Positions 3,966 through 58,444 of a stretch of DNA of 64,000 nt are shown in pieces. The notes beneath the pieces were generated by a model. That model did no database searches, had not been told where the DNA came from, and was given only the letters and a program-made list of their open reading frames with translations. The position numbers and the translations under genes are program-made. The DNA is taken from assembly GCA_050173015.1 (NCBI GenBank), contig JBFXLE010000007.1, positions 1-64,000 on the forward strand, read 5' to 3'. This DNA is from Calditrichaceae bacterium (lineage in GTDB: Bacteria; Calditrichota; Calditrichia; Calditrichales; JBFXGD01). Within the stretch, counting starts at the first letter, position 1. Every line of letters begins with the position of its first letter.

Positions 3966-5345
3966 ATGGATTTAAAACTGGATTATTCCAATACTCTGGC
4001 TGATAATATTATGGACAAGCACGGATTATCTATAAGCGAAATTGAAGCGCTTACATCTTCCGGAAAAGATATATTGACAAGATTAAGAAAACAAGCTAAT
4101 GACTCCAGCCTGGGATTTTATAAACTTCACGAGCAAACCGATGTCCTGACCGAAATCGAGTCCTATGCCCAGGTTGTGCGCAGCCGGTTCAAAAATTATG
4201 TTCATATCGGAATCGGTGGTTCGGCGCTCGGCCCAATCGCCCTGCAAACATCATTGCTTGATTCTTACTACAATTTCAACAGCGAACCAAGAATGTTTTT
4301 CCCTGATAATGTGGATCCCGACTGGCTTGATGATCTGGCAAAAACAATAGATGTATCTAAAACCCTTTTTCATGTCGTTTCCAAATCCGGTGGCACTGCC
4401 GAAACGGCCGCGACCTCCCTTTATTTTATGGAGTTTCTGACAGAAAAACTTGGCGATAACTTCTATAAGAATCTTTTGTTTACAACAGATCCCGTCAAAG
4501 GCCTGCTGAATCAGATTGCCCGCGAATATCCCATCAAATGTTTTAGAATTCCACCGGGTGTGGGCGGGAGATTTTCGGTGCTCTCCCCTGTCGGTCTTAT
4601 CTCGGCGGCAATCGCGGGGATCGATATCCGCAAATTATTAGCCGGCGCTGCGGAAATGGCGTCTAAATGCGACAACGATAATTTAATGGAAAATCCCGCT
4701 TATATCTACGCCGCGATCCATTACCTCTACATGAAGAGAGGGAAAAATATCAGCGTAATGATGCCTTACAGCAATAAATTGAGGGATCTCGCCGATTGGT
4801 ACCGACAAATCTGGGCTGAAAGTCTTGGAAAACGGTATAATCTGAACGGAGAGGTTGTTGAGACCGGTCAGACCCCCGTGAAAGCGTTGGGCGCGACAGA
4901 CCAGCATTCACAGGTCCAGCTATATGTGGAAGGTCCAAACGACAAGGTTTTTTCTTTTTTAGAAGTCGAAAATTTTAAAAATAACCTCACGCTTCAAAAT
5001 CATTTTACGTATATCAGCGAGTTCGACTATTTTGAGGGAAAGTCCCTGGGAGAACTCCTCAATTCCGAAAAGCGCGCGACTGAACTGGCGCTATCAAATA
5101 ATGAGCGGCCGAACCTGACAATAAAATTTTCTGAAGTCAGTGAGGAGAACATCGGCGCGTTTCTGTTCCTTCTGGAAGCCGCTACCGCTTTTGCCGGAGG
5201 CCTGTTAAATATAAACGCTTTCGATCAGCCGGGCGTGGAGGAAGGTAAGATCGCGACATACGCGTTGATGGGACGCAAAGGGTATGAGCAGAAAAAGAAG
5301 GATATTGAAAGCCTGTTAGGAAAAAAGAAACTTTATCAAATCTGA
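3966..5345 (+). CDS. pgi: Glucose-6-phosphate isomerase
   Basis: GIGGS, SKSGGTAET, VGGRFSV, QIWAESLGK, DQHS and FDQPGVEEGK motifs. Confidence 0.95.
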   Translation: MDLKLDYSNTLADNIMDKHGLSISEIEALTSSGKDILTRLRKQANDSSLGFYKLHEQTDVLTEIESYAQVVRSRFKNYVHIGIGGSALGPIALQTSLLDSYYNFNSEPRMFFPDNVDPDWLDDLAKTIDVSKTLFHVVSKSGGTAETAATSLYFMEFLTEKLGDNFYKNLLFTTDPVKGLLNQIAREYPIKCFRIPPGVGGRFSVLSPVGLISAAIAGIDIRKLLAGAAEMASKCDNDNLMENPAYIYAAIHYLYMKRGKNISVMMPYSNKLRDLADWYRQIWAESLGKRYNLNGEVVETGQTPVKALGATDQHSQVQLYVEGPNDKVFSFLEVENFKNNLTLQNHFTYISEFDYFEGKSLGELLNSEKRATELALSNNERPNLTIKFSEVSEENIGAFLFLLEAATAFAGGLLNINAFDQPGVEEGKIATYALMGRKGYEQKKKDIESLLGKKKLYQI

Positions 5346-13236: not shown

Positions 13237-16200
13237 TTAATGTGACTCATATCCTTTTAATCCGCCCTTTGGCACAATTAGCTTAAAAACATCTCGGCAG
13301 ATTTCAATCATTTCTCCATCCACATTGATAAACTCGGAACCATTTTTTTTGAATAGCGGAATATTTGAAAGTTCAAAAACTTCTTTTATCTTTTCAATAT
13401 AGTATTTCCATTCCGTATCTGTAAACTCTTTGACCTTTCCATGGGTGTACTGAGCCTCCATTAACCTGTTTTTGGGATCAAAAAAGACAAAATTACCACG
13501 GGAAGCCCCGCCGAGCATTTTTGTCCCGAGATAGGGTCTTTCATTCAGACATAATTGTCCACGGGTATTAAAGTGCATTCCGCCAAAGAAAAAGTTTCCG
13601 CCCATTAATGATTCTCCGGCATATTTTGTCGCCGATCCGAGAATAAATACTTCAAGATCCTGGCACCGACTGTCGTTGACAGAATTCGTCCAGCAACGAT
13701 CAACCACATTCCCCATGATGAATACTTTTCCTCCTTTGGAAGCGTATCCGCAAACCTTTCCCGCATTTCCATATACATACAAATTTCCGTGATGCATACC
13801 CATGGCGCAGAAATTTTGAGCATTTCCATGAAGCCGGATCGTTCCACCCTGCATAAAAGCTCCAAAATACTCACCCGCGGATCCGTACACATCCATTACC
13901 ACATCATCCGTGTCACCGCCGCCCATTACCGCTGTCGAAATCAGTCTTTGCCCGGCTGCCCTGTGGATGAGATATTTTCTCCATCCCATATCATAAGCTC
14001 TGTTTAAAAACGCTGCAAGTGACAGCGCAGGATCTGAACCCTCGGGCAAAAAATGACCGGCGTCTACTACAATGACATGATTATCACCTGGTGAGATATT
14101 AAAAGACTCCGCGCCCTCGCGATTAACCTGAACAAGACCAGTGAACTGCGGCTCTTTTGATCTGTCCAACAACTGATCAATAAAATATTGTGACATATCG
14201 ATCAATGAACTTTGAGCTTTATCACCCGGGTCTAGTGTTCGGATCGAATCCCTAAACCAGGTCATTGTTTCAAGATTTTTAAGAAATGCTCCAGTATTAT
14301 CTGTTTCAGCCACTAATTTATTCAGAAGCCAGCCAAGATCATTGAATGTGATTACCGATAAATTTTTTCTAAAAAACACTTTGAAGTCTTTTTCCCAACC
14401 TATAAACTTAGTGGCATCAGAAGGCTCAACCAGTTTCGCGCGTCTGATACTGTGATGTTTTCCCATTGACTCAATACTGATTTCCTTGCCGTATCTATCG
14501 ATAAATTCGAATCCTGTAATCTTGTTACTGTCATCATAATGGTAGCGGCTGATCATTCCCGAACTAACCAATACTTTATCCGGCATAACGCCGTCGATGA
14601 GTCCATCTTTATCCAGTAACTCCAGTATTTTATTCAGCGCCTGTTCTTCTGAAGCAATCATACTAAAAACACGGTCTCCATCTTTCCAGAACGCGCTGAC
14701 ATTGGGGCGAAGATCAGCAGGATCTTTTAAATCGACACGTTCAGTTATTTTTTTCTGCGGATCATGACGAAGACAAAGATACTGGTAAGGCCCGTCCGGT
14801 GAGCTGGCGAATTCAACCCGCTGAATCTGTTCCAGCTTTGGTTTCAAATCGGGATCGATCAGTTTTAAATCATCCCCGGTTGTGGGTGAAAAACTTTCAA
14901 ACATCGCCCAATCGGGATACGCCCATTCATCCGCGATCAGATGAAATTTCAGCGCTGCGACATCTGTATCGGTGGATGCAAGGGGTGACAGACCAAATTG
15001 TTCCACCCGCTGCCTGAGCGCTTCATAATTTGTTGTTTCACCGTTATGGGTCAATGCGGTATGAAGTTTTGTGAATGGATGCGCGTTCATCTGTTCAACG
15101 ACAGAACCTGTTGCAAGCCGCACATGTATGATGTTATTGGGCGCGTCAGGAGTCTGCCAGGGTATTACACGTCCCGCCGTTTTCCAGGTTGCAAAATTTT
15201 TCCCGCAGGACATTACCGCAGCGATTTTAAATTCTCTTGTTTTATACATATGTTTATTGTGTTCAAAAGGATATTCCCTGATAAATTCTCTCAGCAAGGA
15301 CAGGAGATCGATACTTAATTTTTCATACTCTGACTGATTTATATTTTTAATGTCAATATCCACATTGCGTGATTCCGCGAATTTGTTCAATCTCTCCGCG
15401 TCTATATTCGAAGTGTAAAGAATACGCGTTAAATTAATGGAATGATCAAAAACATATAAATCTTCCGCTTTCTGGAGAAAATCGGGCTGATCTTTGTAAT
15501 TTTCTTTTGTCACGTTTGGAAACTGATGTATCAGAAAGTGCGACCAGTCATATTTGAGCAGAGTATCTTCCACATATTTATAAATAACGTCTTTCTTTAC
15601 GCGCGTAAAAAATCTGAAAATATCACCAGGATCGGTATTTTCATCTCCGAAATGCCTGAAATCAATCTCTTCGCCTTCCTCATCCAGTTTATAAATGTCC
15701 CTCACTTTTTGCACATCTGTTTCAGCATAGAAATCAAAAAACGGATCCAGAAATACAGATTTAATTTTGTGCATGATTTCTTCTCTCAGATAAAGGGTGA
15801 GCTTTCGAGCTTCTTTCCTGAGAATAATTTCATCAAAAGCGCGGCCCTCCGCCTGCCACTGAAGAGACAAATTTGATTCAATGTCTTTTTGTAATACCCC
15901 CTTCACCATAATACTATAGCCGTATTCATTCTGATGATCCGGGAAACACAATGACTTTGCCACACCGACGCCATCCATCCCGCGGTTGCGCATGGCGTTC
16001 AAGGCGCTGTCAAGAATGTATCCCGGGACAGGCATTGATCCGTTAATAGCCGCGACTCCGCAATTGCTTTGTCCCGTGGTGTGTTCCATCCGCTCAACAA
16101 AAAGCCTTTCATCCATTTCAATTTCTTTTTGAATTTCTTTGTTAACCCGGAAACGATGATCTACCCGTTCCTTAAGCCCAATCCAGTGTAATTTATCAAA

Positions 16201-19200
16201 CCGGCCCCGCAATTCACGAATGTCTTTAAATCCAAGAGCGGCGATTCCCCGAATAACGTGCATTTGCATCATGGTAAAAGCATTAATCATCTGGATTGTA
16301 TTTTTTTCTACATCACGTAGTTTCTGCATCGTCAGATTACTCGTGGCAATACCTCTTGAACATCCATCATGACAATTCCTGTTTCTGTCACATCCGATAG
16401 CAACCAGCGGAGCTGTACCCCAGATTATACCATCTGCTCCCAATGCAATTGACTTTATTACATCTTCATAAGTTCGGATACCGCCTGACACCAAAAAATT
16501 AACATGGTTTCTCAAACCGTCTTTGACCAGCCTGGAGTGAATGAGGGGAATCGCGTATTCGATATGCATACCCATTTGTCCCTTGATAATATTCGGGGAC
16601 GCGCCCGTCCCCCCTCGTGGTCCATCAAGCCAGATTTCAATTTTCATTCCGAATTTACGGGCATATTCTTTTACTTCATCGGTATAATCTTCAGGATCAA
16701 TGTCACCAAACCTGGTCTTTATGATCTCTTCCGTATTGTCCTTCGCGATTCTTCCCAAGCCGGTTGCAATAAACTCAATGTCGATCGATGGTGACACTTT
16801 CACCGAAATGACCGCGCCCGGATTGATCATATGCACTACATCAATAAACGCCTTGACATCTTCTATTGAATAACAATTGTGAAACGGAAACGGAGATATG
16901 ATACTGGAATAAGAATAATTTATCACTGTTTCACAAAGCCCGATAAGATTTTCAAAATCTATATCATCCAATACTTTTTCTTTATGTAATCGATACACCG
17001 CTTCCTGGAATTCAAAAAGTATCTCTTTCAGATTTTCAGTAACCGTCTGTAATTCCTGCGCTTCATCGATGATTTTCAATCCGGATTGTGCGATATCTTT
17101 TAGCGGGTGACTTTCTTTCTTTATGATTTTATTAAGCTGCCCGAAAAGCCCTTCAATCCTTTGCGCATTGATTTTCTCAACGCCTTCAATCCCGCGAAGA
17201 TAGGAAACAAGTTTATTGACTTTCTTTGCCAGAATGTGCCCGCCGATGCCCATTTTCGCGCCCTGGCTATAAGCGATAACAACTCTGCGAGCTTTCCGGA
17301 TGGTTTCCTTTGTGACGCCGAATAATCCCGTTTTCATCTCCGTCGAAACAAATGGCTCGTCATCTTTATCAACAACGACCATAAAATGAAACGGCTTTAA
17401 TGACGGATAATGTTTAATCTGTTCAAAGATTTCCGGATTTGATTCTTCTGTTATGCCTTCCGTACGCAGGATTGATCTGATTTCATCAATCGTATATTGC
17501 TCTCCGCTTACAAACAGCGGGCGAATGAGCTGGATGACATTTTCTGAAAAGAAAACCGGTTCGCCCTTTGAATTAAGAAAGAAGCTTGTAGGATACCCCC
17601 CTTCACCGGTATCATATTGAATTCCGAGTTCCCGGGCAGCTATAACATGTGCTCTCCAGGTATCAAGCCCAATGGAGCCGACTGATTTTCCTCCAAACAT
17701 CCAGGGAGCTTCTAAGACAAGATCCTTATCCAATGACAAAGCCGTCCGGACTTCATTCAACGCTGAATCCGGTATATCCATCGGATCTTTGTTATAAAGG
17801 ATTTTCATAACATCAAAACCGTCACCCAACAAACCCGTCGGTTTAACATTCCTGAAGTCAAGCATTGAAAGATCACCCGATGCCATTTTACCAAGCGATT
17901 CTATAAGAGATCCCGGCCACACATAATCCCTTTTGTAGAGAGTTTGATTTGTATCTCCCAACCGGTAAAAATTGTGTGGTGAATTGAGCGGCTTGATTTT
18001 ATCCTTCAAATTTTGATAGGTCCTGATGTATTTATTGTCAATAAATTCACCGGCTATGATTTCCCCGTTTAATTTCTCATACCCCCCAATAAGTGACTCG
18101 TTCTCAAAAACATCTCTCTGCAGGCGGTTTTCGAGCTGATGGAAATCGATCAGCCGGCCTTCTTCACCAACCGTTTTCTTGATATCTTTAAAGCCGGATG
18201 CTCCCAATACTTCAAGAATCTGAACTTTTCTGGACTCAGCCTGATTATTCAATCTCTTAACAGCCTCCTCAATATCAAGACTAAGCAACTTTTCAGTGGT
18301 GGTTTTTTCTTCAACTATAGCTTTATAAGAAGTCGGATCAAGCGCGAGCAAAGCGGCAAAATCGATCATTGTGCCTTCCGCACCCCGTTGAATTGTTTTT
18401 TGAGAGTCGGATGCGAGACGAATTCCTCCGGATGCGATGAGGCTCAATTCATGCCTCCGGCCGATCCGCATCAGATAATGATGAAGTGCCCTGACGGCGC
18501 CGGACGTTACAAAATATTCATCTTTATTTCGCATCCCGTGTATATGCAGAATATCAATTCCCTGATCCAGCAGATGGTTCACCTTTTCCTTGACTTTTCT
18601 CGCAGGGCTCAGCGAGCCAATCAGATCATACTCTGAAATTTCAATATACCCGCTTATCAGCGGTGCTTGTTTATCAGCCGCTTCCACTGATTCACGAATA
18701 TAACTGAGCGTCCGTTCGATATTTGGATGATACTCAACTTCAAAAACAGGCATCTGCCATAAATCGGTCAAAAACTCGCGATTTGTACGCGGATTGACGA
18801 TCAGTCGATGGATCAGTTCATGATCGACCCGCGGTATAATGACCCGCGGCAGATGTTCATATTCTCCCTCTTTTATAATAAAATTATAATTTTCCAGAAG
18901 TCTTTCGAGTTCGATCGCCACAAGTGTCTTCTGCTTTTCAGCCACTTTGATCAAGGCCAGCTCGACCCTGCCGTTACTTTCCAGACTGACCGTATTATAT
19001 AAGATGGGACTCATCAGCTTAATTGTCGGGTAAGGCTCATTGAGCAGGCTGCCCTTGTTGTCAAATCTGCAATAACTGTCCCTTTTCCCCAGAATAATAG
19101 AAAGCTCCTCATCCGGGTCTCCCTCATGCAATCTGTTTTGCGCGGGACCGACAATATGAAAATGCGCGAATCGCTCGGCATCAAAACCGATTCCCATATG

Positions 19201-21969
19201 CCGGTCTCCCTGTCCCATCCCGGAGACAGGAATCTGGCCGTTAGAGGCTTCTTTATCAATTTCCATGATAATATCTTCGGTGACATAGCGGTCCGCCATT
19301 TCAGTCAATTGATTTGAGCGATGGACCTTGGTTGTGTCGTGGATCCTGTTTTGCTCTTTCACCCAGTATTTTTTCTCTTCAAGATCGGGGGCGTTGTATA
19401 TCAGCCTGTCCATATATTGCCGTTCTTCCTGAGCGACTTTATTCTGCGGACAATAATTCACACAAGCGTTGCATAAAGCGCAGTTCAGATCCAGTAATTC
19501 AGGTATCTGACGCGGTTTCCCTTCACGGGCTCCGTACATACAGGCGTTTTCGTCGCTGCACATGCCGCAATGGATACATGTGGTTGAATCTATAAATAAC
19601 TTTCCGTATTCAAATCCCCGGGGATAAAGAATTTTTAACCCATGAGAAAGATGAGATTTTTCATCTTTTTGCTCAGCTAAAGTATGCTCAGTATAAAGAG
19701 GGCTCTCCTTCATCACCTGCCAAAAACGGTCAATAAATTCATTTTTCTCCTGATGACTCATTGCAAGGGCTTCGATAAACCGGTTATCTTTTTCCACTAA
19801 ATCAAATAATTCGGTCAGTGGTATATCTGTTGGACATACATGAGTACAATTATCACATCGTGTGCAGATCAAAAAACCGGCCGCTTCTTCTTTTGTGATT
19901 GATTCATCTTCAACAAGCCTTAAGGCCGTTTTTCGCCTTGTGATCGGCGTGGCTAATCCATAAAGGCCAAAGACATCTGAAGTGGGGCAAACGCGCTCAC
20001 AACTGTCACATTCTGCGCAGGGGGCGATTAATTCAGCCAGCGGTTTTTTATGAGCTTTCAGTCCCGGCGGAACCATTTTGGGGAAAATCGAACCGCTGAC
20101 ATTCCATACCAATCTTTCAAAAGGGTATGACAAAACATATCTTTTGCCCTGCTGTCTTTTATGAGATGTGTTTACAATCCAGTGATTAAAAATAGGGGTC
20201 AGTCGTGAAAATATGCGGAATGCCAATTTTTGGTTCTTTGTATTGATAAATTTTCCGCGATTAATCAATCCATGTCTGTCTGACTCCGATTTTAGATTGC
20301 TCAGGTAACGAAACTTCTCTCCGGCGATCTGTTTCCACTTCTTGAAAAAGGGGAAATTCCAAATTCCAATACCGTATGGCCGGGCGCCAAAATATATAGC
20401 GACTTCTGTCATCAGGGGAACCAGCGCAAAATAGAGTTTATGTCTCAGAGTCCTCGTATCGGCCAGAATTAAAGATTGCAGAAGCAGCTCACCCGTTGAC
20501 AGCAAATGAGCCTCCGTTTTTAAGTCAATATTTAATAGTTTTTGCAAAATTTGCCTGATCATTGTTTGATAAGCCAAAAATGCATCCAATGGGATAATAG
20601 TCTCACTCACCAGCATGGAAGGTCCTTTTTGCTTCATTTGGACCGGAAGAAAACGGTGGTTCCATAATTTATGAGCGAGGATGGTTGATACTTGCAAATA
20701 GGTGAGCTGATGAAATCTGATCTTTTGTCCGGACGCGGCAAATAGCCTGGTTTTTAACGCTTTCTGATAATCATCTTTTTCATCAAACTGCATAACAATG
20801 ATATGATCATAATCACCCAGCTCCTGCAAATACTCATAATCTTCTCTAGCCTCAGCAAGCCTGATCTGATCATTCCGGCGCAAGGCTTCGGATGATCGCT
20901 TCTCTGAATGCTCATTCTCAATAAGGAAGGTTTCTTCAATATAAGATTTGTCAAAATAGATGACAGAGGTGGGTTTGATCTCTTTTTCCTTTAATATGCG
21001 CATAAATTCGCACGCGTCTTCGGGATCATTAAAGGAAAAAGCAAATGGTTTGGAAAGATAACTCTCTTTTCTTACTCTGAGTATGACTCCGACAATGATC
21101 CCTATTTGCCCTTCACTCCCAAAATAATGATTGAAATCATCCTGATCATAATCTACAACCTTGAGTTCTCCCTGCGGAGTTATGAGGAGAATTGAAATTA
21201 TTGATCGGCTTATGTGCCCGTATTTATAGCTGCCGAGACCCAATCCTCCGGTGGCAATCCAACCTGTTATTGTGCCGCTGTTCTTATTAGTGATCTCCTG
21301 CCGAAGCGCGAATCCCCTTTCTTTAAGATAGTTCCGCGCATCAGGAAAAATGACACCCGCGCTAAATCCAAAGACCCCCTTTTCCGGATCAAGGTATTTG
21401 AAATCCAGATATGATAAATCCAAAATGATGTCATCGTTGATCGGCACCGCTCCGCCGAAAGGCCAGGTTCCCGCTCCGCGGATAGTATAGTGGATATTGT
21501 TTTTATGAGCCCATTCTACAAATATTCTGGTATCCTCAATGGTTCCGGGGCGGACAATAAACGAGCATCTCACGTTTAGCAGCCATTTTTTAAAAAGTCT
21601 GGGGACCATATGCGTGCCTGTATCGGCCGAATAGATTTCACGCTGTACAGCTCCCGGGATAAATATTTCAGTTGCCGGACTGAGTAGTTGCCCGAGTGTT
21701 TCCATTTGCCCCTGATATTTTCTGGGAACCGATAGATTATCTCTTACTCCGTCCAGTATTAATTGCCGTGATTTTTGCTGTTCTCTTACCTTGTTCTGGC
21801 AAGATTGATTAAGCAGGTAGGAAAATATTTTGTCCCGATCGCCCGCCGGAAGTGCATTCATCATTAAAAATTCTCCCGTGTTTGGAAGTTTGAAGTACTT
21901 CAAAGGCTCGTGTGATTGATTAAATATCTTTTTCTGACAATCATTTAAAAACTGGAACTTATCCAACAA
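13237..21969 (-). CDS. Giant glutamate-synthase-related multidomain protein: FAD-binding (PCMH/GlcD-like) oxidoreductase + two 2[4Fe-4S]-type domains + degenerate FMN barrel + intact FMN barrel + class II glutamine amidotransferase + GXGXG domain
   Basis: Uninterrupted 2910-codon ORF. FAD domain: IRGAGTWPFGGAVP, GSEGQIGII. Fe-S: CAECDSCERVCP, CTRCDNCTHVCP, CIHCGMC, CALCNACVNYCP. FMN barrel: TGEGG, SQGAKMGIGGH, DGPRGGTGASP, SGGIRT, CDRNRNCHDGC. GATase: CGVAAI, HVRLAT, AHPF, HNGE. Gly-repeat beta-helix at the C-terminus. The TTG start is uncertain. Confidence 0.88.
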   Translation of the reverse strand: MLDKFQFLNDCQKKIFNQSHEPLKYFKLPNTGEFLMMNALPAGDRDKIFSYLLNQSCQNKVREQQKSRQLILDGVRDNLSVPRKYQGQMETLGQLLSPATEIFIPGAVQREIYSADTGTHMVPRLFKKWLLNVRCSFIVRPGTIEDTRIFVEWAHKNNIHYTIRGAGTWPFGGAVPINDDIILDLSYLDFKYLDPEKGVFGFSAGVIFPDARNYLKERGFALRQEITNKNSGTITGWIATGGLGLGSYKYGHISRSIISILLITPQGELKVVDYDQDDFNHYFGSEGQIGIIVGVILRVRKESYLSKPFAFSFNDPEDACEFMRILKEKEIKPTSVIYFDKSYIEETFLIENEHSEKRSSEALRRNDQIRLAEAREDYEYLQELGDYDHIIVMQFDEKDDYQKALKTRLFAASGQKIRFHQLTYLQVSTILAHKLWNHRFLPVQMKQKGPSMLVSETIIPLDAFLAYQTMIRQILQKLLNIDLKTEAHLLSTGELLLQSLILADTRTLRHKLYFALVPLMTEVAIYFGARPYGIGIWNFPFFKKWKQIAGEKFRYLSNLKSESDRHGLINRGKFINTKNQKLAFRIFSRLTPIFNHWIVNTSHKRQQGKRYVLSYPFERLVWNVSGSIFPKMVPPGLKAHKKPLAELIAPCAECDSCERVCPTSDVFGLYGLATPITRRKTALRLVEDESITKEEAAGFLICTRCDNCTHVCPTDIPLTELFDLVEKDNRFIEALAMSHQEKNEFIDRFWQVMKESPLYTEHTLAEQKDEKSHLSHGLKILYPRGFEYGKLFIDSTTCIHCGMCSDENACMYGAREGKPRQIPELLDLNCALCNACVNYCPQNKVAQEERQYMDRLIYNAPDLEEKKYWVKEQNRIHDTTKVHRSNQLTEMADRYVTEDIIMEIDKEASNGQIPVSGMGQGDRHMGIGFDAERFAHFHIVGPAQNRLHEGDPDEELSIILGKRDSYCRFDNKGSLLNEPYPTIKLMSPILYNTVSLESNGRVELALIKVAEKQKTLVAIELERLLENYNFIIKEGEYEHLPRVIIPRVDHELIHRLIVNPRTNREFLTDLWQMPVFEVEYHPNIERTLSYIRESVEAADKQAPLISGYIEISEYDLIGSLSPARKVKEKVNHLLDQGIDILHIHGMRNKDEYFVTSGAVRALHHYLMRIGRRHELSLIASGGIRLASDSQKTIQRGAEGTMIDFAALLALDPTSYKAIVEEKTTTEKLLSLDIEEAVKRLNNQAESRKVQILEVLGASGFKDIKKTVGEEGRLIDFHQLENRLQRDVFENESLIGGYEKLNGEIIAGEFIDNKYIRTYQNLKDKIKPLNSPHNFYRLGDTNQTLYKRDYVWPGSLIESLGKMASGDLSMLDFRNVKPTGLLGDGFDVMKILYNKDPMDIPDSALNEVRTALSLDKDLVLEAPWMFGGKSVGSIGLDTWRAHVIAARELGIQYDTGEGGYPTSFFLNSKGEPVFFSENVIQLIRPLFVSGEQYTIDEIRSILRTEGITEESNPEIFEQIKHYPSLKPFHFMVVVDKDDEPFVSTEMKTGLFGVTKETIRKARRVVIAYSQGAKMGIGGHILAKKVNKLVSYLRGIEGVEKINAQRIEGLFGQLNKIIKKESHPLKDIAQSGLKIIDEAQELQTVTENLKEILFEFQEAVYRLHKEKVLDDIDFENLIGLCETVINYSYSSIISPFPFHNCYSIEDVKAFIDVVHMINPGAVISVKVSPSIDIEFIATGLGRIAKDNTEEIIKTRFGDIDPEDYTDEVKEYARKFGMKIEIWLDGPRGGTGASPNIIKGQMGMHIEYAIPLIHSRLVKDGLRNHVNFLVSGGIRTYEDVIKSIALGADGIIWGTAPLVAIGCDRNRNCHDGCSRGIATSNLTMQKLRDVEKNTIQMINAFTMMQMHVIRGIAALGFKDIRELRGRFDKLHWIGLKERVDHRFRVNKEIQKEIEMDERLFVERMEHTTGQSNCGVAAINGSMPVPGYILDSALNAMRNRGMDGVGVAKSLCFPDHQNEYGYSIMVKGVLQKDIESNLSLQWQAEGRAFDEIILRKEARKLTLYLREEIMHKIKSVFLDPFFDFYAETDVQKVRDIYKLDEEGEEIDFRHFGDENTDPGDIFRFFTRVKKDVIYKYVEDTLLKYDWSHFLIHQFPNVTKENYKDQPDFLQKAEDLYVFDHSINLTRILYTSNIDAERLNKFAESRNVDIDIKNINQSEYEKLSIDLLSLLREFIREYPFEHNKHMYKTREFKIAAVMSCGKNFATWKTAGRVIPWQTPDAPNNIIHVRLATGSVVEQMNAHPFTKLHTALTHNGETTNYEALRQRVEQFGLSPLASTDTDVAALKFHLIADEWAYPDWAMFESFSPTTGDDLKLIDPDLKPKLEQIQRVEFASSPDGPYQYLCLRHDPQKKITERVDLKDPADLRPNVSAFWKDGDRVFSMIASEEQALNKILELLDKDGLIDGVMPDKVLVSSGMISRYHYDDSNKITGFEFIDRYGKEISIESMGKHHSIRRAKLVEPSDATKFIGWEKDFKVFFRKNLSVITFNDLGWLLNKLVAETDNTGAFLKNLETMTWFRDSIRTLDPGDKAQSSLIDMSQYFIDQLLDRSKEPQFTGLVQVNREGAESFNISPGDNHVIVVDAGHFLPEGSDPALSLAAFLNRAYDMGWRKYLIHRAAGQRLISTAVMGGGDTDDVVMDVYGSAGEYFGAFMQGGTIRLHGNAQNFCAMGMHHGNLYVYGNAGKVCGYASKGGKVFIMGNVVDRCWTNSVNDSRCQDLEVFILGSATKYAGESLMGGNFFFGGMHFNTRGQLCLNERPYLGTKMLGGASRGNFVFFDPKNRLMEAQYTHGKVKEFTDTEWKYYIEKIKEVFELSNIPLFKKNGSEFINVDGEMIEICRDVFKLIVPKGGLKGYESH

Positions 21970-22122: not shown

Positions 22123-22153
22123 AAAAAAGGCGGCAATTTTATATGCCGCCTTT
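22123..22153 (-). terminator. Rho-independent terminator after metK
   Basis: Minus strand AAAGGCGGCA-tataaaat-TGCCGCCTTTTTTT. Confidence 0.85.
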
Positions 22154-23386: not shown

Positions 23387-24430
23387 TCAATTCTCAAATT
23401 TTGCCAGTTGACTCTTTAAATAATCAATGTTTTTGATATCCTGCGGCGATTTCTTGTAAGCCAATGCCAGATAATAACTGACCCAGTCGCCCAAAATAAT
23501 CAGGGAAAACACTTTTTCGAGGTTCGTTTCACCGGCAGAATATATATCTACAACTTCAACCCCGCGATCCTTGATAATTTTTTTGGATAGTTCTATCCTC
23601 TGTTTTATGCGCGGCAGAGGATTCTCATTTTCTACAAATATGACGATAAAATCTTTGACACATGGCTGTTCAAGCTCCCATCCGACTATTTCATTGTGAT
23701 TAAACTCGGGGAGGACATTTGAAAACGCCAATGATTTGCCGTTTTCCTGCATCTGATTTTGCCAACGTCTTGAAATTGAACTTAAGTATGGCGCCGTAGA
23801 ATAGATAATTGGAATTTTTTTGTGAATGGTCTGAGCAAGCTCCCTGGAAAGAATATGACTATCCGTCATGGTATAATCGTTTCTTTTTGACATCTCTTTT
23901 GTAAACTTTATAAGCTGACTCAAATCCGGATCATAATCATTTAACAGCCCCAGGTTACCTAACATATGATAAAGGGGAAAGAAAATATATCCCAGAGCCT
24001 GACGGGGAGGATACCCTTCAGGTATTTCAATGATACCCCAGTTCTTTTCTTTCGCTCTTTCTTTTAATGTACCACCGGAAGTAATAACGACGAATTGCGC
24101 TCCTGAATCGGCGATACTATCTATGGCCATGAGTGTTTCCTCGGTATTCCCTGAGTAACTTGCGGCAATGACGAGCGTATTCGAATCGCAAAATTTTGGT
24201 GCGTAATATCCCCTTGTTACGCGAAGGGGAATATTTAAACTATCAAAAAGAACATCATTTAGAATATCCCCGGCAATGGCTGATCCACCCATTCCAAGAT
24301 ATAATATATTCTGAATGTTCTCTGATTTTAGTGAAATATTCGCTTTAACATACAAATCATTACTTTCCTGAATCTGTTTGTAGAAGTTGTTCAAATAATT
24401 TTTGAATCCGGATTTGTCGATTGAGTACAT
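23387..24430 (-). CDS. Bifunctional phosphoglucose/phosphomannose isomerase (SIS family)
   Basis: GMGGSA, SYSGNTEET, TSGG, PPRQA, ENGK, PEFNHNE. Confidence 0.9.
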   Translation of the reverse strand: MYSIDKSGFKNYLNNFYKQIQESNDLYVKANISLKSENIQNILYLGMGGSAIAGDILNDVLFDSLNIPLRVTRGYYAPKFCDSNTLVIAASYSGNTEETLMAIDSIADSGAQFVVITSGGTLKERAKEKNWGIIEIPEGYPPRQALGYIFFPLYHMLGNLGLLNDYDPDLSQLIKFTKEMSKRNDYTMTDSHILSRELAQTIHKKIPIIYSTAPYLSSISRRWQNQMQENGKSLAFSNVLPEFNHNEIVGWELEQPCVKDFIVIFVENENPLPRIKQRIELSKKIIKDRGVEVVDIYSAGETNLEKVFSLIILGDWVSYYLALAYKKSPQDIKNIDYLKSQLAKFEN

Positions 24431-32386: not shown

Positions 32387-33235
32387 TTAATTATGTATGG
32401 TAGCATTAATTGGGGCCATCGTTCTGTTTTTTCGACCTCTGGAAGGATTGACCGTTTCCAGCATGCCAAAACCAAGATCGTTCAGCTGTCCAAGACCTAA
32501 ATCATATATAAGCTGCAAAACTTCAGGTTCTGCTTTTATATGAATTGGCGCCAGTATCCCCCGAATTTGTTCAGGAGCATCTTTTGAATTTTCAAGGGTA
32601 ATCACTTTTGTGATTCTATTGTTCTTTCTTCGGATATATTCTCTGTCGAATTCAAGATTTAATCGAATATTATTCTTCTTTTGTTTTTTTATCAGGTTGT
32701 ATTTATAAATGAGATCTTTTTCAATATAATCAAGATATTCATCTTCTCCCGGCAGCAAGTATCCACCGTTGAATTGATACATTGCCCTGTGCCTTTTGTT
32801 AAAGCGCTGTCGATATACCGCTACCGGCGACATGCATGTAAATTGCGCTTCCGCTTCCTTAAATTCGGGCGAAGGTATGAATTCAATTCCCCCGACATCA
32901 AACCAGGCGTTTTTAATTTTAATTTTTCCTCTGTCCCTTAATTCTTTGGCGATGAGCCCAAGAAATTGATAGTATGGCGAAGAAATGTACCAGTAAAATT
33001 CACTTGACAAAATGCCGATCTGAAAATCCTTAATCTCGCGTTCCGGTATGATTAACTGTGAGAAGGTATACATATCGAATTTTGCATGCACTCCATCGAT
33101 CCCCGGCAGCAAAGAGTTTAGGTACCGGCGATACTCATATGTGAGCTGATTTATCAGTTTTACAAGATAGTAGTTTGTATTAATTGGCAAAAAGGTTCTG
33201 GCCCGCTTGTTCTTGAACGTGATTTTAATTCGCAT
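32387..33235 (-). CDS. cas6: Stand-alone Cas6-family (RAMP) protein, likely catalytically degenerate
   Basis: MRIKI...LPIN, YTFSQL, ISSP, TCMSPV, DLIYKY and the C-terminal G-loop YDLGLGQLNDLGFGM. ATG at 33235 preferred over GTG at 33253. No array or other cas gene in the window. Confidence 0.88.
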   Translation of the reverse strand: MRIKITFKNKRARTFLPINTNYYLVKLINQLTYEYRRYLNSLLPGIDGVHAKFDMYTFSQLIIPEREIKDFQIGILSSEFYWYISSPYYQFLGLIAKELRDRGKIKIKNAWFDVGGIEFIPSPEFKEAEAQFTCMSPVAVYRQRFNKRHRAMYQFNGGYLLPGEDEYLDYIEKDLIYKYNLIKKQKKNNIRLNLEFDREYIRRKNNRITKVITLENSKDAPEQIRGILAPIHIKAEPEVLQLIYDLGLGQLNDLGFGMLETVNPSRGRKNRTMAPINATIHN

Positions 33236-33285
33236 AAATCTCTCTCGTTTCACTGAATATTAAAATAATTTCATATGAGTAATAT

Positions 33286-39559: not shown

Positions 39560-40024
39560 TTATAATTTTCCCATAAGGTCAACCATCTCAATTGCCGTTA
39601 ATGCGGCATCCCAACCTTTATTACCCGCCTTTGTGCCTGCTCTTTCGATTGCCTGTTCAATAGAATCTGATGTAATAATACCAAAGATAACCGGCTTTCC
39701 CGTTTCAAGCGAGACACTTGCGATTCCCTTGGATACTTCAGCTGAAACATAATCAAAATGAGGCGTCGCGCCGCGAATTACCGCCCCAAGACAAATGACA
39801 CCGTCATACTTATCCGATTCAGCCAAACGTTTGGCGATAACCGGTATCTCAAAAGATCCGGGCACCCAGACAACGGTGAGATCATTATCCAGTCCTCCAT
39901 GACGAATCAGGCAATCCGTCGCTCCGGAGAGTAATTTGTTTGAAATAAATTCATTGAACCGACCGACCACCAACGCAAACTTTTTTCCTTTTGCCGAAAG
40001 ATGGCCTTCTATTAGTTTGGCCAT
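39560..40024 (-). CDS. ribH: 6,7-dimethyl-8-ribityllumazine synthase
   Basis: [33 protein letters not shown]. Confidence 0.96.
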
Positions 40025-40065
40025 TGTACCTCCTAGTTCACTTCAATTTGAATTTCAAAAACAGG

Positions 40066-41304
40066 TCATTTTTTTGATAAAAACAGATGCCCCATTTTAT
40101 CTCTTTTTGTTTTTAAATATCGTTCGTTGACTTCATTGGGACAAATTTCTATCGGCACCCGTTCCACAATTTCAAGATCATATCCTTTAAGACCGACAAT
40201 CTTTTTCGGGTTATTCGTCATAAGCCTGATTTTTGACAATCCCAAATCCTTCAATATTTGAGCTCCGATACCATAATCTCTTAAATCGGCTTTAAAGCCA
40301 AGCATCTCATTTGCCTCAACGGTATCTTTGCCCTCCTCCTGAAGCGCGTACGCCAGCAGTTTATTCACCAATCCGATCCCGCGCCCTTCCTGACGCATAT
40401 ACAGAACAACGCCTCTGCCTTCCTTTTCGACAATTTTCAAAGCAGTCGCGAGCTGATCACCGCAATCACAACGTCTTGAACCAAAAACATCACCGGTAAG
40501 ACATTCTGAGTGTACGCGCACGAGTACAGGATCTCCGTTTGATACATCACCTTTGACGAGAGCGACATGGTGCTCGTTCAGATCAAGAATATTTTCAAAA
40601 AGGTATAATTTAAACTTGCCGTAACGCGTCGGCATATCCACCACCACCCGTCGCTGAACAAGTTTTTCTCTCTGTCCCCTGTACTCAATCAGATCCGCGA
40701 TGGTTATCATTTTCAATTTATGCTTTTTGATGAATTTTTTCAGTTGTGTCACACGAGCCATACTGCCGTCTTCATCCATTATCTCACAGAGGACGCCCGA
40801 TGGTTTCAGACCGGCCATTCGGGCAAGATCAACCGCCGCTTCTGTATGCCCGGCTCTTCTGAGTACGCCCCCCTGTTTAGCAATTAAGGGGAAAATGTGT
40901 CCGGGACGAGCCAGATCTTCAGGTTTTGTTGCCGGGTCAATGGCCGCTCTAATTGTACTGGAGCGGTCAAACGCAGAAATTCCGGTTGTGGTACCATGCT
41001 TATAATCGATGGTCACCGCAAACGGTGTTTCATGGAGGGCGGTATTCTCCTCAACCATATAATCCAGCCGTAAATCACGCGCCCGCTGATCGGTAATCGC
41101 TACACAAAGCATCCCGCGCGCCTCACGTGTGATAAAATTGACATCTTCGGGACGAATCAATTCTGACGCCATAATCAGATCGCCTTCATTTTCACGATCC
41201 GCGTCATCAACGACAACGACCATCCTGCCATTCCGAATATCCTCAAGGGCTTCATCAATCGAACTAAAAGATACACCCTTTTCATTTATCTTTTTATCTG
41301 ACAT
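40066..41304 (-). CDS. ribBA: Bifunctional DHBP synthase / GTP cyclohydrolase II
   Basis: [46 protein letters not shown]. Start likely 41304. Confidence 0.96.
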
Positions 41305-41306
41305 TG

Positions 41307-41954
41307 TTAATACCCTAACTTTTTGAACCATTCATCCGAAAAAACCGAATCTCCGGATTGTGATTTTTTTGAAATCATTAAATTTTCAACATATTTAGCG
41401 ATAACATCCGTTTCAATATTTACCTGATCACCGATATCCCTGAATTTCAAATGAGTATTCGACCAGGTGTGAGGTATGACTGAGACACCGACTCTTGAAT
41501 CATTCAATCTGGCAATAGTCAAACTGATACCATCGATGGCAATGGATCCTTCCGAAATCAGATATTTAGTTAATTCCTTCGGGACATCCACCTCCAGGAA
41601 ATAATTTTCTCCCAGTTTGTTTATTTGAGTTATCGTCGCCACACCGTTCACATGCCCCTGAACCAGATGCCCGCCAAGCCTGTCCATCAGCCTTACAGCC
41701 CGTTCAAGATTTACTAAAGTTCCTTGCCGTAATTTAGAAAAGGTGGTTTTTTTTAATGTATCGCCAACCGCGTCAACACGGAAACTTTCCGTGTCACAAG
41801 CGGTAACGGTAAGGCAAACGCCGTTCACAGCGACCGAATCGTCAATTTTAACATCGTTCATAATTGACTTCGCTGAAATTTTAACGCGTTTACCACCGGC
41901 TATCGGTTCAATTCCGGTAATTTTTCCGATTTCTTCTATGATTCCTGTGAACAT
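41307..41954 (-). CDS. ribE: Riboflavin synthase (alpha chain)
   Basis: [30 protein letters not shown]. Confidence 0.96.
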
Positions 41955-42000
41955 GGCTATAATTTATTAATTTAAGACTATCATTTCACTTAAAAAAATG

Positions 42001-43092
42001 TCAATCCGACTTCTTTTTTAATTCTATCTTAATATCATTACCTAATTTTTCGATCGATCGCAGTTCAAATTCCGTCCGTGTATCAACATCAAAGGCGGAT
42101 AATCCTCGTCCAAACAAAACCGGCGCCTGCAATATGATTAATTCATCCAGATGATTATTACTTATGAATGAACTGAATAATTCCTGTCCGCCTTCAACCA
42201 ATACCGAAATAATTTTTTCCGTGCCCAGGATTTTAAGAATCCGGTTAAGATCAAGATGGAATTTTCGGTCCGACGGTATCCTGAAAATACTAATTCCTCT
42301 ATTTTCAAGAGATCGAATTTTTTGAACATCGCTGTCTTCCGCCGTAAAAACCCAGGTACCTTCCTTTCCCTCATCATTAAATATTTTAGAATCCGGCGGG
42401 CTGCTCAGACGCCCGTCGATGATTATTCTGTATGGATTCCGCCCCTGAACCTTTCTTACCGTCAGCTGCGGATTGTCAGAGCTTACGGTGCCCGCGCCGA
42501 TCATCACCGCGTCATAGCCGGCCCGCTGTCTGTGAACATATTCGACGGCTTCATTACCCGTCAGCCATGTCATTGTTCCTCTGCGCTCGGCAATTTTCCC
42601 GTCCAGTGTTTGCGCGATTTTCATTGTTACATATGGCATTCCGGTTTGAATATATTTGAAGAAAAAACGGTTGAGATACTCGCCTTGCTTCCGTAGTACA
42701 CCGGTTGTCACTTCAATTCCTGCATCAGATAATTGTTTCACTCCCTTCCCGGAAACCATAGGATTTGGATCGGGATTGCTTATCACAACCCTTTTTAATT
42801 TGTGCGAGATAATTAGGGGTGTACAGGGTGGGGTTTGTTTTTCAGTATGACAACACGGCTCAAGGTTGCAATAGAGTGTCGCCCCCTCAACGGATTCGAT
42901 CGCGTTCTGAATCGCGTTCAGTTCCGCGTGCGCGCTTCCGTAATGCTCGTGCCATCCTTCCGCGATGATCTTTCCATTTTTGACAATGACGGCGCCGACC
43001 AGCGGATTCGGACTTACTTCACCCTTACCACGGCACGCCAATTCAAGGCACCGCCGCATGTAAACATGATCATCAGCTATTCCTGCTGTCAT
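42001..43092 (-). CDS. ribD: Riboflavin biosynthesis deaminase/reductase
   Basis: SPNPLVGAV, HAE, LEPCCH...PPC, TLDGKIA, DNPQL, VEGG. Start likely 43092. Confidence 0.95.
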   Translation of the reverse strand: MTAGIADDHVYMRRCLELACRGKGEVSPNPLVGAVIVKNGKIIAEGWHEHYGSAHAELNAIQNAIESVEGATLYCNLEPCCHTEKQTPPCTPLIISHKLKRVVISNPDPNPMVSGKGVKQLSDAGIEVTTGVLRKQGEYLNRFFFKYIQTGMPYVTMKIAQTLDGKIAERRGTMTWLTGNEAVEYVHRQRAGYDAVMIGAGTVSSDNPQLTVRKVQGRNPYRIIIDGRLSSPPDSKIFNDEGKEGTWVFTAEDSDVQKIRSLENRGISIFRIPSDRKFHLDLNRILKILGTEKIISVLVEGGQELFSSFISNNHLDELIILQAPVLFGRGLSAFDVDTRTEFELRSIEKLGNDIKIELKKKSD

Positions 43093-43288
43093 GGTAACCT
43101 TCTTTTCAAGATGATTTATCCGGGATATGTTAATCAATCAGCAAATTTGCCGGAAAACAGTGTTTTCCCCGGAAGAGAAAGGTAATGATCTTTACTCTTT
43201 GGTTCAAGCTATTTGCCGGTAACATTAATAATACAGCGGCTATTTTTCGGCTATCGTTGGGAATATCCGGATTTGCCCGGGATAACCA

Positions 43289-57734: not shown

Positions 57735-57797
57735 GAAGTAGGAAGTAGGAAGTAAGAAGTAAGAAGTAAGAAGTAGGAAGTAGGAAGTAGGAAGTAA
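57728..57797 (+). repeat. Heptamer tandem repeat (GAAGTAR)x10
   Basis: GAAGTAG x3, GAAGTAA x3, GAAGTAG x3, GAAGTAA. The first unit supplies the TolC stop codon. More units near 57867 and at 58110-58137. Confidence 0.95.
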
Positions 57798-57836
57798 GAT
57801 TTAAGAGCGTTAAGAGAAAAGAGTTAAGAGTTAAGA

Positions 57837-57861
57837 GTAGGGGCACGATGCTCGTGCCCTA
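57837..57861 (+). repeat. REP-like palindrome (GTAG family)
   Basis: GTAG-GGGCACGA-tgc-TCGTGCCC-TA. Confidence 0.65.
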
Positions 57862-57865
57862 AGTT

Positions 57866-58330
57866 AGAAGTAGGAAGTAAGAATTAGTCTGAACTTTGAT
57901 TAAAATGATTAAATGATGAGCATGATTTAAGCACTTAATTCCGCGTACTCCCCGTAGGTCATCCTGGAAGGATCTTCTGCTTGATTGGGAAGAGGCGGAA
58001 AGTGAGAAAAAAGATAAAAGAAAAAAAATTAAGAATGGTCTGAACCGTGACGCGTCCGCCTCTGGTGGATTAATATAATTAAGAAATTGGAAATCAGAGT
58101 TCAGACAAAGAAGTAGGAAGTAAGAAGTAGGAAGTAAGAATTAGTCTGAACTTTGATTAAAATGATTAAATGATGAGCATGATTTAAGCACTTAATTCCG
58201 CGTACTCCCCGTAGGTCATCCTGGAAGGATCTTCTGCTTGCTTGGGAAGAGGCGGAAAGTGAGAAAAAAGATAAAAGAAAAAAAATTAAGAATGGTCTGA
58301 ACCGGGACGTGTCCGCCTCTGGTGGATTAA
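57866..58330 (+). repeat. 208-bp direct repeat, two copies (57866-58073 and 58123-58330), with inverted-repeat boundaries
   Basis: Offset of 257 nt and 3 substitutions seen by eye. GTCTGAACTTTGATT (57887, 58144) is inverted relative to AATCAGAGTTCAGA (58092, 58392). Confidence 0.93.
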
Positions 58331-58444
58331 AATGATTTAATGATTTGGATGATTAAGAAATTGGATATCAGGGTAATCATCTGATCACACAAATCAGAGT
58401 TCAGATAATGAAAATGATTGAAGCAAAAATCAAAGGAGTAAGGC

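Follow-up and report, generated by a model that had tools for sequence, protein, structure and literature searches.

A 2,910-codon gene of a Calditrichaceae bacterium predicted to encode a permuted, glutamate-synthase-like enzyme with a fused flavin and iron-sulfur module

The subject of this analysis is a giant gene on the reverse strand of a 64,000-nucleotide stretch of Calditrichaceae bacterium DNA (assembly GCA_050173015.1, contig JBFXLE010000007.1, positions 1 to 64,000; the whole stretch is called the window below). The gene occupies 13237..21969, where a single frame runs for 2,910 codons from a TTG without an internal stop over 8.7 kb, and all residue numbers of the giant protein are counted from this TTG as codon 1. 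Based on sequence comparison and structural models, the product is probably a glutamate synthase (GOGAT)-type enzyme with a built-in electron input, a reading to which we assign a probability of roughly 0.6. In the models its core is a permuted GltB with the order central-FMN-glutamine amidotransferase (GATase)-GXGXG, in which all four parts are found and the parts pack pairwise as in GltB. Glutamate synthase activity itself is suggested by homology and by the gene context of split relatives, the giant presumably being a member of a non-canonical GOGAT lineage whose relatives are made as three or four separate subunits. An original prediction, made from the letters of the window, had described a single chain of 2,910 residues, its domain order, and a flavin adenine dinucleotide (FAD) module with an Fe-S chain fused onto the core. 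The single open frame holds them all in the same chain, and Pfam confirmed the order, with the boundaries right to within a few tens of residues.

The giant protein is not alone. A homolog search limited to proteins of similar length returned 115 homologs, 98 of which are full-length relatives of 2,474-2,992 aa. Seventy-two of these are long forms (about 2,790-2,990 aa, 53-100% identity) with the source labels Calditrichota, KSB1, Zhuqueibacterota, Gemmatimonadetes and Krumholzibacteria. The 26 short forms (about 2,470-2,560 aa, BLASTP identity 32-43%, one labelled Thermodesulfobacteriota) have the same domains, and only the inserts and linkers are shorter. Three members, P0113-P0115 (1,873-2,179 aa), are without the FAD module, and a 98-kb contig carries one of them. 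Species-representative genomes hold 195 stretches coding for a relative, including two single-contig chromosomes (4.7 and 6.3 Mb), and the closest locus is that of a Calditrichaceae metagenome-assembled genome with 91% identity. Database names for the family members are only 'FAD-binding protein' or 'glutamate synthase-related protein', and none of the NCBIfam models run on each module reached its cut-off.

The FMN/synthase domain aligned with the canonical GltB FMN domains of the same phylum over 311 columns (hhalign probability 100, E 2.3e-46). The Pfam family Glu_synthase (PF01645) matched the giant protein in four stretches with 207.6 bits and an E value of 4.1e-61, the best of them at residues 1779-1914. 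The motifs QGAK, SP.P.H..YSIED, GGTGA.P and GG.R are common to this domain and canonical GltB. In a phmmer alignment with residues 908-1172 of A. brasilense GltB the three cluster cysteines are kept, which in GltB are the ligands of the 3Fe-4S cluster. QGAK and these cysteines (Cys1860, Cys1866 and Cys1870) are invariant in 99 of 99 family sequences. Also invariant are the Lys of QGAK and an Arg aligned with GltB Arg957 (A. brasilense, 2vdc numbering), both presumably with a role in 2-oxoglutarate binding.

The first barrel was harder to place by sequence. It scored E 4.1e-4 to PF01645, with a weak Pfam barrel match at 1158-1238, and matched solved-structure profiles weakly, as IMP dehydrogenase (IMPDH)-type hits at the SGGIR loop only. 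The hhalign matches were weak to both GltB domains (28 columns and probability 23 for canonical central domains), and PF04898, the central-domain family, gave no match in the giant protein. Its ESM Atlas neighbours fell in PF01645 clusters. Since the sequence methods gave weak matches, the position of this barrel was assigned by fold comparison. An AlphaFold2 (AF2) model of residues 880-1965 (predicted local distance difference test, pLDDT, 79.4; predicted template modelling score, pTM, 0.78) superposed on the central and FMN domains of GltB in 1ea0_A, model residues 13-1054 on chain residues 451-1182, with a Z-score (Z) of 31.3 and a root-mean-square deviation (rmsd) of 3.9 Å over 628 residues. 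Similar values were obtained for 7mfm_G, 1ofe_A, 2vdc_A and 6s6s_A, and the first barrel alone matched FMN-dependent hydroxy-acid oxidases at Z ~20.5. In the model the first barrel is a complete TIM barrel at the position of the GltB central domain. What had been labelled a degenerate FMN barrel is better described as the strongly conserved, predicted structural counterpart of that domain. Indeed, judged by its sequence the first barrel is not decaying, because its mean identity among the 72 long forms is 68% and the best-conserved stretch of the whole protein lies inside it.

That stretch, residues 901-950 (window 19120-19269), comprises the best-conserved 50 residues of the giant, at 94% among the long forms and 65% to the short forms. 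Its motif is ..SGMGQGDRHMGIGFDAERF.HFHIVGPAQNRLHEGDP.., and parts of the stretch are modelled with a pLDDT below 50. A loop that binds a cofactor, a cluster or a partner is one possible role.

The C-terminal third brings the two remaining parts of the core. Pfam matched GATase_6 at residues 2279-2339 (31.1 bits against a cut-off of 27) and GXGXG (PF01493) at residues 2684-2792 (40.1 bits against 32.5). The beta-helix also matched the profile of FwdC (5t5i_C, E 6e-11), and the model of the beta-helix alone resembled FwdC/FhcC at Z ~15. An AF2 model of residues 1955-2910 (pLDDT 87.3, pTM 0.87) has the glutaminase fold, as it aligned with PurF (8w7d_A, Z 24.7, rmsd 2.1 Å) and GlmS (Z ~23). The same model aligned with the glutamate synthase (GltS) chain 1ofe_A at Z 23.4 and an rmsd of 3.2 Å over ~570 residues, model residues 16-948 on chain residues 1-1498, so that the amidotransferase and the C-terminal beta-helix align together on GltS. 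Structure prediction, a check proposed with the original prediction, thus yielded two models, with Z 31 and Z 23 to GltS. By sequence the amidotransferase lies outside the GltB type and is closer to PurF/GlmS than to GltB, although its modelled fold is that of class II. Cys1970, CGVAA, NRG, H.RLATGS, HPF, HNGE and TDT, which correspond to the catalytic Cys and the Arg, Asn-Gly and Asp motifs of class II amidotransferases, are invariant in 99 of 99 sequences.

Catalysis by class II amidotransferases relies on an N-terminal cysteine with a free amino group. The original prediction was silent on the fact that in the giant this nucleophile, Cys1970, lies inside the chain, a position that implies either self-cleavage or an unorthodox glutaminase. 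Every structural alignment of the amidotransferase has Cys1970 (model residue 16) as its first model position; the solved chain enters at residue 1 or 2, or at Cys87 in the case of plant GPRAT2. Cys1970 superposes on the N-terminal Cys1 of PurF, GlmS and GltS. A beta-strand begins right after Cys1970 in the AF2 model, and the preceding twelve residues have a pLDDT below 50. The residue at -1 is Asn in 73 and Asp in 26 of the 99 sequences, and that at -2 is Ser or Thr in 98 of them, while the linker ahead of Cys1970 is poorly conserved (43%). The Cys is likewise internal in two giants of a separate clade with the same domain order (P0124 and P0215), and it lies ~78 residues from the start in a permuted giant (P0134). 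In stand-alone GATase-GXGXG relatives it follows a conserved xEGG in 70 of 70, with the nearest upstream Met at least 9 residues away and a median pre-Cys length of 35. Because all 70 of these split relatives carry a propeptide before the Cys, processing to expose it appears to be general in the GATase-GXGXG clade. In canonical GltB of the phylum the propeptide before the Cys of ..EHDA-CG has at most ~25 residues, with start codons inferred. Autocatalytic propeptide removal and cis cleavage in class II amidotransferases are described in print (PMC7056826, PMC3207474). Since Cys1970 is internal, invariant and superposed on Cys1, and since such precedent exists, we put the odds slightly in favour of self-cleavage of the giant between N1969 and C1970 into subunits of ~1,934 and 941 residues. 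One could speculate, no more, that the Asn/Asp at -1 is involved, perhaps by succinimide formation of the kind seen at intein C-termini. For a 'propeptide' of ~1,934 residues we know of no precedent.

Where would the electrons enter? FAD_binding_4 (PF01565) matched residues 137-271 with 84.7 bits against a cut-off of 26.4. In a profile search the closest solved relative of the FAD module was LctD (7qh2_C, E 8.7e-31), from a complex of lactate dehydrogenase with electron-transfer flavoprotein (Etf). Further solved matches were alkyl-dihydroxyacetone phosphate (DHAP) synthase, D-lactate dehydrogenase (D-LDH), glycolate oxidase and D-2-hydroxyglutarate dehydrogenase, and all solved-structure matches span the FAD-binding part only. 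PF02913 had no match in the giant protein at E <= 0.01. In the alignment of the cap with LctD, GEHG ('GeHGIG') is replaced by RPYG ('RPYG.GIW') and the His of NLH ('DGNlH') is lost, residues that in D-LDH-type enzymes presumably bind metal and act in catalysis. The first His (KTEAH) of the His...His...Glu-His signature is kept, the signature as a whole is not, and the terminal DP..L.N.GK motif is retained in the family. Stand-alone relatives of the module were limited to fragments of giants and unnamed FAD/Fe-S proteins of 608-718 aa with 25-29% identity, no characterised relative being found. Known relatives do not allow the substrate of the FAD module to be predicted, because the cap is without the catalytic signature of the nearest solved ones. 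The conserved cap residues include R404, E451, Y497 and W502 (alignment A4 numbering) among many invariant Arg, His, Tyr and Trp, and Y497, G500 and W502 are invariant in that alignment, including the separate FAD/Fe-S proteins of split systems. A small organic donor feeding the FAD module is a tentative proposal, with odds somewhat below even. The claim of a self-contained glutamate synthase driven by oxidation of an organic substrate therefore stands in one part and falters in the other. The complete GltB-type catalytic set is present in permuted form (hhalign, invariant motifs, Z 31 and Z 23), and missing from the cap are the His/Glu of GEHG and the second metal-binding His.

Downstream of the FAD module, 16 cysteines in four C..C..C...C-like cluster motifs are invariant in 99 of 99 aligned family members. 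With the three cluster cysteines of the FMN domain added, the arrangement fits a wire FAD - 4x[4Fe-4S] - [3Fe-4S] - FMN. In NADPH-GOGAT electrons pass along FAD - 2x[4Fe-4S] - [3Fe-4S] - FMN, a route to which the predicted wire of the giant is analogous.

With the C-terminal 971 residues of the giant as query, 1.8 billion representative proteins were searched, and the matches were ~880-aa stand-alone GATase-GXGXG proteins and other giants of the same modules, among them P0134, in the order GATase-GXGXG-FAD-...-FMN. A metagenome scan for the ~880-aa form gave at least 577 stretches, 80 loci of which were kept. The usual split operon has three genes, encoding a ~470-aa protein of ferredoxin and central-like barrel, a ~515-aa FMN barrel and the ~880-aa GATase-GXGXG protein. 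The ferredoxin domain heads the ~470-aa barrel subunit (a 522-aa protein in L093). Three loci (L116, L145 and L148) add a 644-668-aa FAD_binding_4/FAD-oxidase_C/Fer4_8 protein, and two of the three have both barrels fused in one protein. The FAD/Fe-S, barrel and GATase-GXGXG modules recur in a rearranged fusion (P0134) and as sets of two or three genes (L145, L148 and L116), which argues that they work together. A quick tree of the FMN domain with 62 rows, which included a random sample of 25 of the 48 split sequences and has long branches to be read with care, set canonical GltB apart. It placed the long and short giants in one clade (SH-aLRT 100), the other giants in a second (98), and the split and intermediate forms in a third (98).

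The gene context of the split relatives was counted over the 26 loci flanked on either side by 6 kb or more. A barrel subunit (FMN or central-like) was present in 24 of them and MvhD in 23, followed by glnA (13), metF (12), metV (11), an HdrA/GltD-like giant (9), HdrB-like and carA (8 each), PII and HdrC-like (7 each) and the FAD module (2). The linkage of glnA and PII to the split relatives supports a glutamate-synthase role of the core in nitrogen assimilation, and the varying redox partners show, at the level of gene content, that the electron-input unit is exchangeable. In many metagenome loci, among them L079 (2646-15030), L093 (3522-18255), L083, L141 and L142, the split trio is embedded in a MetFV-Hdr-MvhD-type cluster, with mvhD-metV-metF on one side and hdrC-, hdrB- and a ~1,500-aa hdrA/gltD-like gene on the other. 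Beyond being a mere neighbour, the GltB-like trio might there be a partner or electron acceptor of the MetFV-Hdr-MvhD-type complex.

The source genome (97.5% complete, 54 contigs) has no canonical gltB by a search for GATase_2 (PF00310). All of its PF01645 matches lie in the giant frame, except a weak one (E 3.5e-4) in a 508-aa frame on contig C53. It encodes two glutamine synthetases and, on other contigs, four GltD-like Fer4_20 proteins, so that the remark that no gltD is nearby holds within the window. Among 86 genomes of the phylum, which are related and not independent, the giant was found as a strong match in 33 and canonical GltB in 29, one of the latter with stop codons inside the match. 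A further 30 'matches' to the giant were weak frames of ~610 aa. In many phylum genomes the giant is the only GOGAT candidate.

How would such an enzyme work? The 2,875-aa precursor would cut itself between Asn1969 and Cys1970. One product would be a ~1,934-residue chain with FAD, four [4Fe-4S]-type sites, the central-like barrel and FMN/[3Fe-4S], the other a 941-residue chain with the amidotransferase and the beta-helix, and the two would stay together after cleavage. Going by homology, Cys1970, then N-terminal, would hydrolyse glutamine, and the ammonia would pass to the FMN site, where 2-oxoglutarate would be converted to glutamate. The FMN would be re-reduced through the 3Fe-4S and 4Fe-4S chain from the N-terminal FAD, as the domain order and the invariant cysteines suggest, and a donor would reduce that FAD.

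Several observations weigh against a GOGAT-type enzyme with built-in electron input. In the FMN site the GltB motif QGAKPGEGGQ reads QGAKMGIGGH, with two positions noted as differing. PF00310 has no match in the giant protein, and the amidotransferase aligned with the canonical GltB GATase over 41 columns only (hhalign E 0.092). GltS structures are in the AF2 training data, and GltS-like packing may have been reproduced from them. The altered residues of the FAD cap count here as well. No neighbour of the long form is conserved, at most 6 of 55 clustered genome loci sharing any one. Three to four ELFV-type glutamate dehydrogenase genes in the source genome could cover glutamate synthesis. In the phylum 27 genomes have the giant only, 23 GltB only, 6 both and 30 neither, including genomes that are 99% complete. 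The absence of gltB is weakened as an argument by the genomes with neither and with both, and these also rule out a strictly complementary distribution of giant and canonical gltB. Evidently GOGAT is dispensable in the phylum, and the giant and GltB can coexist. Could the same set of folds then carry out another reaction, as a glutamine-dependent or amine-transferring FMN enzyme with a substrate other than 2-oxoglutarate, like N-methylglutamate synthase (MgsABC), and with the fused redox chain serving other chemistry? We consider this unlikely. It would account for the changed FMN-site motif, the amidotransferase nearer to PurF/GlmS, the lack of an NCBIfam model at cut-off for any module and the six genomes that hold both genes, and the split-relative genes do often stand among metF/metV, mvhD and hdr-like genes and not in a classic nitrogen context. 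On the other hand, the presumed 2-oxoglutarate residues, the Lys of QGAK and the Arg aligned with Arg957, are invariant, the 3Fe-4S cysteines together with a complete redox chain would suit a reductive amination with a net transfer of two electrons, and glnA and PII flank 13 and 7 of the 26 well-flanked split loci. A glutamate synthase with another input, whether NAD(P)H at the FAD, an Etf, or ferredoxin docking on the clusters, is a minority possibility of some weight. MurB is another FAD_binding_4 enzyme that takes NAD(P)H at its FAD. The change of GEHG to RPYG and the missing NLH histidine fit such an input, as does the Etf partner with which LctD works according to the title of entry 7qh2; P0113-P0115 do without the FAD module, the split relatives use MvhD and Hdr-like partners, and etfB and etfA lie 3-6 kb from the giant gene in the window. 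The etf neighbourhood is common, among the genome loci compared, only to the giant gene here and locus L014 with its 91% identity, no nucleotide-binding motif turned up, and the conserved cap with its invariant Arg, His, Tyr and Trp suggests a defined pocket for a small molecule.

An uncleaved chain would leave the internal cysteine without activity or with a regulatory role, and the nitrogen would then come from free ammonia, which GltB-type synthase domains can use. The extraordinary length of the would-be propeptide favours this, and the proposed cleavage of the giant is deduced from conservation and precedent. We nevertheless hold an uncleaved chain to be quite improbable: every class II motif is invariant in 99 of 99 sequences at overall identities down to ~40%, positions -1 (N/D, 99 of 99) and -2 (S/T, 98 of 99) are constrained, unlike the linker ahead of them with its 43% conservation, and the split relatives have propeptides too. 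The probability that the fusion arose in assembly or annotation, or that the gene is decaying into a pseudogene, is negligible. DNA near-identical to the window is present in sequencing runs from several studies, and three contigs from run X3 of another study cover 13237-16130, 16281-18395 and 18396-21174 at 99% identity or more. They bridge the FAD/Fe-S, Fe-S/barrel, barrel/FMN and FMN/GATase junctions, the Cys1970 codon included. An artefact, which would have undone the original prediction, is excluded by these independent contigs together with the open frame of 8.7 kb, the presence of the giant gene in 33 of 86 phylum genomes, and the 98 full-length homologs from many assemblies, the two single-contig chromosomes among them. 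Nothing speaks for it apart from one nucleotide missing at 13343 in one run X3 contig (depth 6.6), ~35 codons before the stop, which is a frameshift variant or a contig error.

In one run X6 contig an in-frame gap of 76 codons (228 nt) is seen at 15219-15448, inside the variable insertion of the amidotransferase. The joint has 27 letters on its shorter side, and the contig may derive from a related organism.

Glutamate synthase is one of the two enzymes that bring ammonia into biomass in most bacteria and plants, and its established donor classes are three, NADPH, NADH and ferredoxin. The boldest form of our proposal is a new class of glutamate synthase that cuts itself at an Asn/Asp-Cys bond ~1,934 residues into the chain, keeps both halves as catalytic subunits, and oxidizes a small metabolite with a built-in PCMH flavin dehydrogenase, linked by four 4Fe-4S clusters to the 3Fe-4S/FMN site, instead of using NAD(P)H or ferredoxin. 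Taken as a whole, this is more doubtful than probable. If true, no other Ntn (N-terminal nucleophile) enzyme would have so long a 'propeptide', the family would bring in a further donor class, served by a fused dehydrogenase, and Calditrichota, KSB1 and related uncultured phyla would tie their nitrogen assimilation to one particular carbon substrate. The family occurs in at least 33 of the 86 phylum genomes and in records labelled KSB1, Zhuqueibacterota, Gemmatimonadota, Krumholzibacteria and Thermodesulfobacteriota. The GltB domain order appears to be permutable while the predicted three-dimensional arrangement is kept, and the giant is a natural case in which to test how activation of an internal Ntn nucleophile comes about. 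Because the genes are named only generically and many genomes are without canonical gltB, the nitrogen metabolism of these uncultured groups is probably misread in annotation.

The features of the giant gene are collected in Table 1. Its true start is likely the ATG that encodes M36, giving a product of 2,875 aa, because GGGAG precedes this ATG and the identical database protein (P0002) has 2,875 residues. The upstream neighbour is metK and the downstream one a convergent ABC-F ATPase gene. The hairpin after metK and the convergence of the ABC-F gene point to the giant gene as a transcription unit of its own. The neighbour shared by 6 of the 55 long-form loci is a sigma-54 response regulator adjoining a histidine kinase, which offers no hint of function. 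A search of 300-350 nt upstream of 32 giant genes for a sigma-54 promoter, with the consensus TGGCAC-N5-TTGCA, found none in the 32 at 9 of 11 consensus positions (mean for shuffles 0.3).

Table 1. Coordinates of the giant gene, its encoded domains and its flanking signals in the window
Feature	Position (nt)	Strand	Remarks
Whole open frame	13237..21969	-	Stop codon 13237-13239
Likely ribosome-binding site and true start	21862..21877	-	GGGAG 21877-21873, ATG 21864-21862 = M36
FAD module, residues ~100-640	20050..21672	-	PCMH-type FAD_binding_4 (137-271) and divergent cap domain
First 2x[4Fe-4S]-type ferredoxin domain, residues 650-716	19822..20022	-	Cys 651/654/657/661 and 702/705/708/712
Second ferredoxin-type domain, residues 791-842	19444..19599	-	Cys 798/801/804/810 and 830/833/836/840
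First TIM barrel ('CEN'), residues 880-1335	17965..19332	-	SGGIR phosphate-loop-like motif kept, cluster cysteines absent
FMN/synthase domain, residues 1330-1965	16075..17982	-	~100-aa insert at 1593-1688
Codons of Cys1860, Cys1866 and Cys1870	16360..16392	-	Aligned with GltB 3Fe-4S cysteines
Cys1970 codon	16060..16062	-	Ntn-type nucleophile after Ser-Asn; proposed self-cleavage site between N1969 and C1970
Class II (Ntn) amidotransferase domain, residues 1970-2525	14395..16062	-	~225-aa insertion at 2021-2245
Helical linker (2526-~2640) and GXGXG beta-helix	13240..14394	-	Pfam match 2684-2792 = nt 13594-13920
Terminator-like hairpin 3' of metK	22126..22153	-	10-pair stem, 6 GC, T run; rated strong

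Elsewhere in the window, a complete riboflavin operon (ribD, ribE, ribBA, ribH; 39560-43137, reverse strand) lies 18 kb from the two-flavin giant gene, a proximity that is probably coincidence. Two distinct phosphoglucose isomerase (PGI)-type genes are present at 3966-5345 (+) and 23387-24430 (-), one a classical PGI and the other of the bact-PGI_C SIS-domain type, the second lying within a phosphotransferase system (PTS) string (EI, EIIC, EIID) upstream of metK. A Cas6-family gene is found at 32387-33253 (-). Tandem Repeats Finder detected no CRISPR array over the 64 kb of the window, nor was a further cas gene noticed among the open reading frames scanned. Tandem repeats at 57728-58337, between an outer-membrane efflux gene and a CusB/HlyD-type gene, consist of ~10 copies of the heptamer GAAGTAG and 1.9 copies of a 257-bp unit with 97% identity.

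How does the giant compare with known systems? Full-text searches, which did not extend to the supplementary tables of papers, found no literature on this architecture, in line with the original prediction, whose author knew of no characterised enzyme with it. With GltB and ferredoxin-dependent GltS (1ea0/2vdc/6s6s of A. brasilense, 7mfm of B. subtilis, 1ofd/1ofe/1llw of Synechocystis) it has in common, in the models, the same four structural parts and the packing of central and FMN domains (Z 31.3) and of GATase and beta-helix (Z 23.4). Whereas the GltB order is GATase-central-FMN-GXGXG, that of the giant is FAD - Fe-S - central-like - FMN - GATase - GXGXG. Its nucleophile lies 1,934 residues past the likely start M36, in contrast with the short propeptide of the phylum's canonical GltB. 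Unlike in GltB, the amidotransferase is not of the GATase_2 type and has the ~225-aa insert, and instead of a GltD partner the giant has an FAD_binding_4 module and four cluster motifs fused on. The NCBIfam GltB model NF008730 scored 117.9 bits against a cut-off of 1,047 (the FMN part alone 123.1 bits). The giant is by these measures outside the curated GltB family, because the score is far below the cut-off, the amidotransferase is of another type, the order is different and there is no GltD partner.

The split relatives resemble the giant in their modules, the order within each unit, the GATase-GXGXG fusion, the same insertion and the Cys behind a propeptide. They differ in being separate polypeptides, most without an FAD module, and in sitting by MvhD, HdrB/C-like and HdrA/GltD-like genes and glnA/PII. 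The archaeal-type plan, compared by description, has separate GATase, FMN and GXGXG with the ferredoxin on the FMN subunit. It is found neither in the giant nor in the split relatives, which have two barrel subunits and a fused GATase-GXGXG. MgsABC consists of GltB-like GATase, GXGXG and FMN subunits, works with methylamine and glutamate and belongs to methylamine-utilisation clusters; no methylamine genes were seen near the giant gene in the window or the genome loci. The FAD-linked oxidases (LctD 7qh2_C, D-LDH 8jdc, GlcD, 6lpn, YdiJ) share with the giant the FAD_binding_4 domain and the DP..L.N.GK motif, and in the YdiJ and GlcD/F systems, as in the giant, a Fer4_8-type dicluster domain follows the FAD module. 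Compared with the FAD-linked oxidase / D-2-hydroxyacid dehydrogenase family, the giant is without CCG domains. In the propeptide-bearing amidotransferases (PurF/GPRAT of B. subtilis and plants, MEROPS C44) the Ntn Cys must likewise become N-terminal. Their propeptide is short, whereas in the giant ~1,934 residues with two flavin domains and clusters stand ahead of the Cys, and both cleavage products would be functional subunits. For methanogens and anaerobic methanotrophic (ANME) archaea, genomic inference has led to the proposal of F420-dependent glutamate synthases (PMC3448663, PMC3087415, bioRxiv 10.1101/2021.09.25.461819). As described in these sources, FGltS(I) and FGltS(II) resemble the giant in that a GltB-type core is fed by a dedicated dehydrogenase module and not by GltD or free ferredoxin. 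Their input is a separate FrhB/FdhB-like F420H2 dehydrogenase subunit, that of the giant an in-chain PCMH-type FAD module with ferredoxin domains. The architecture is thus uncharacterised, and it is a variant on the glutamate synthase theme, for which modular electron input is already in print for archaea.

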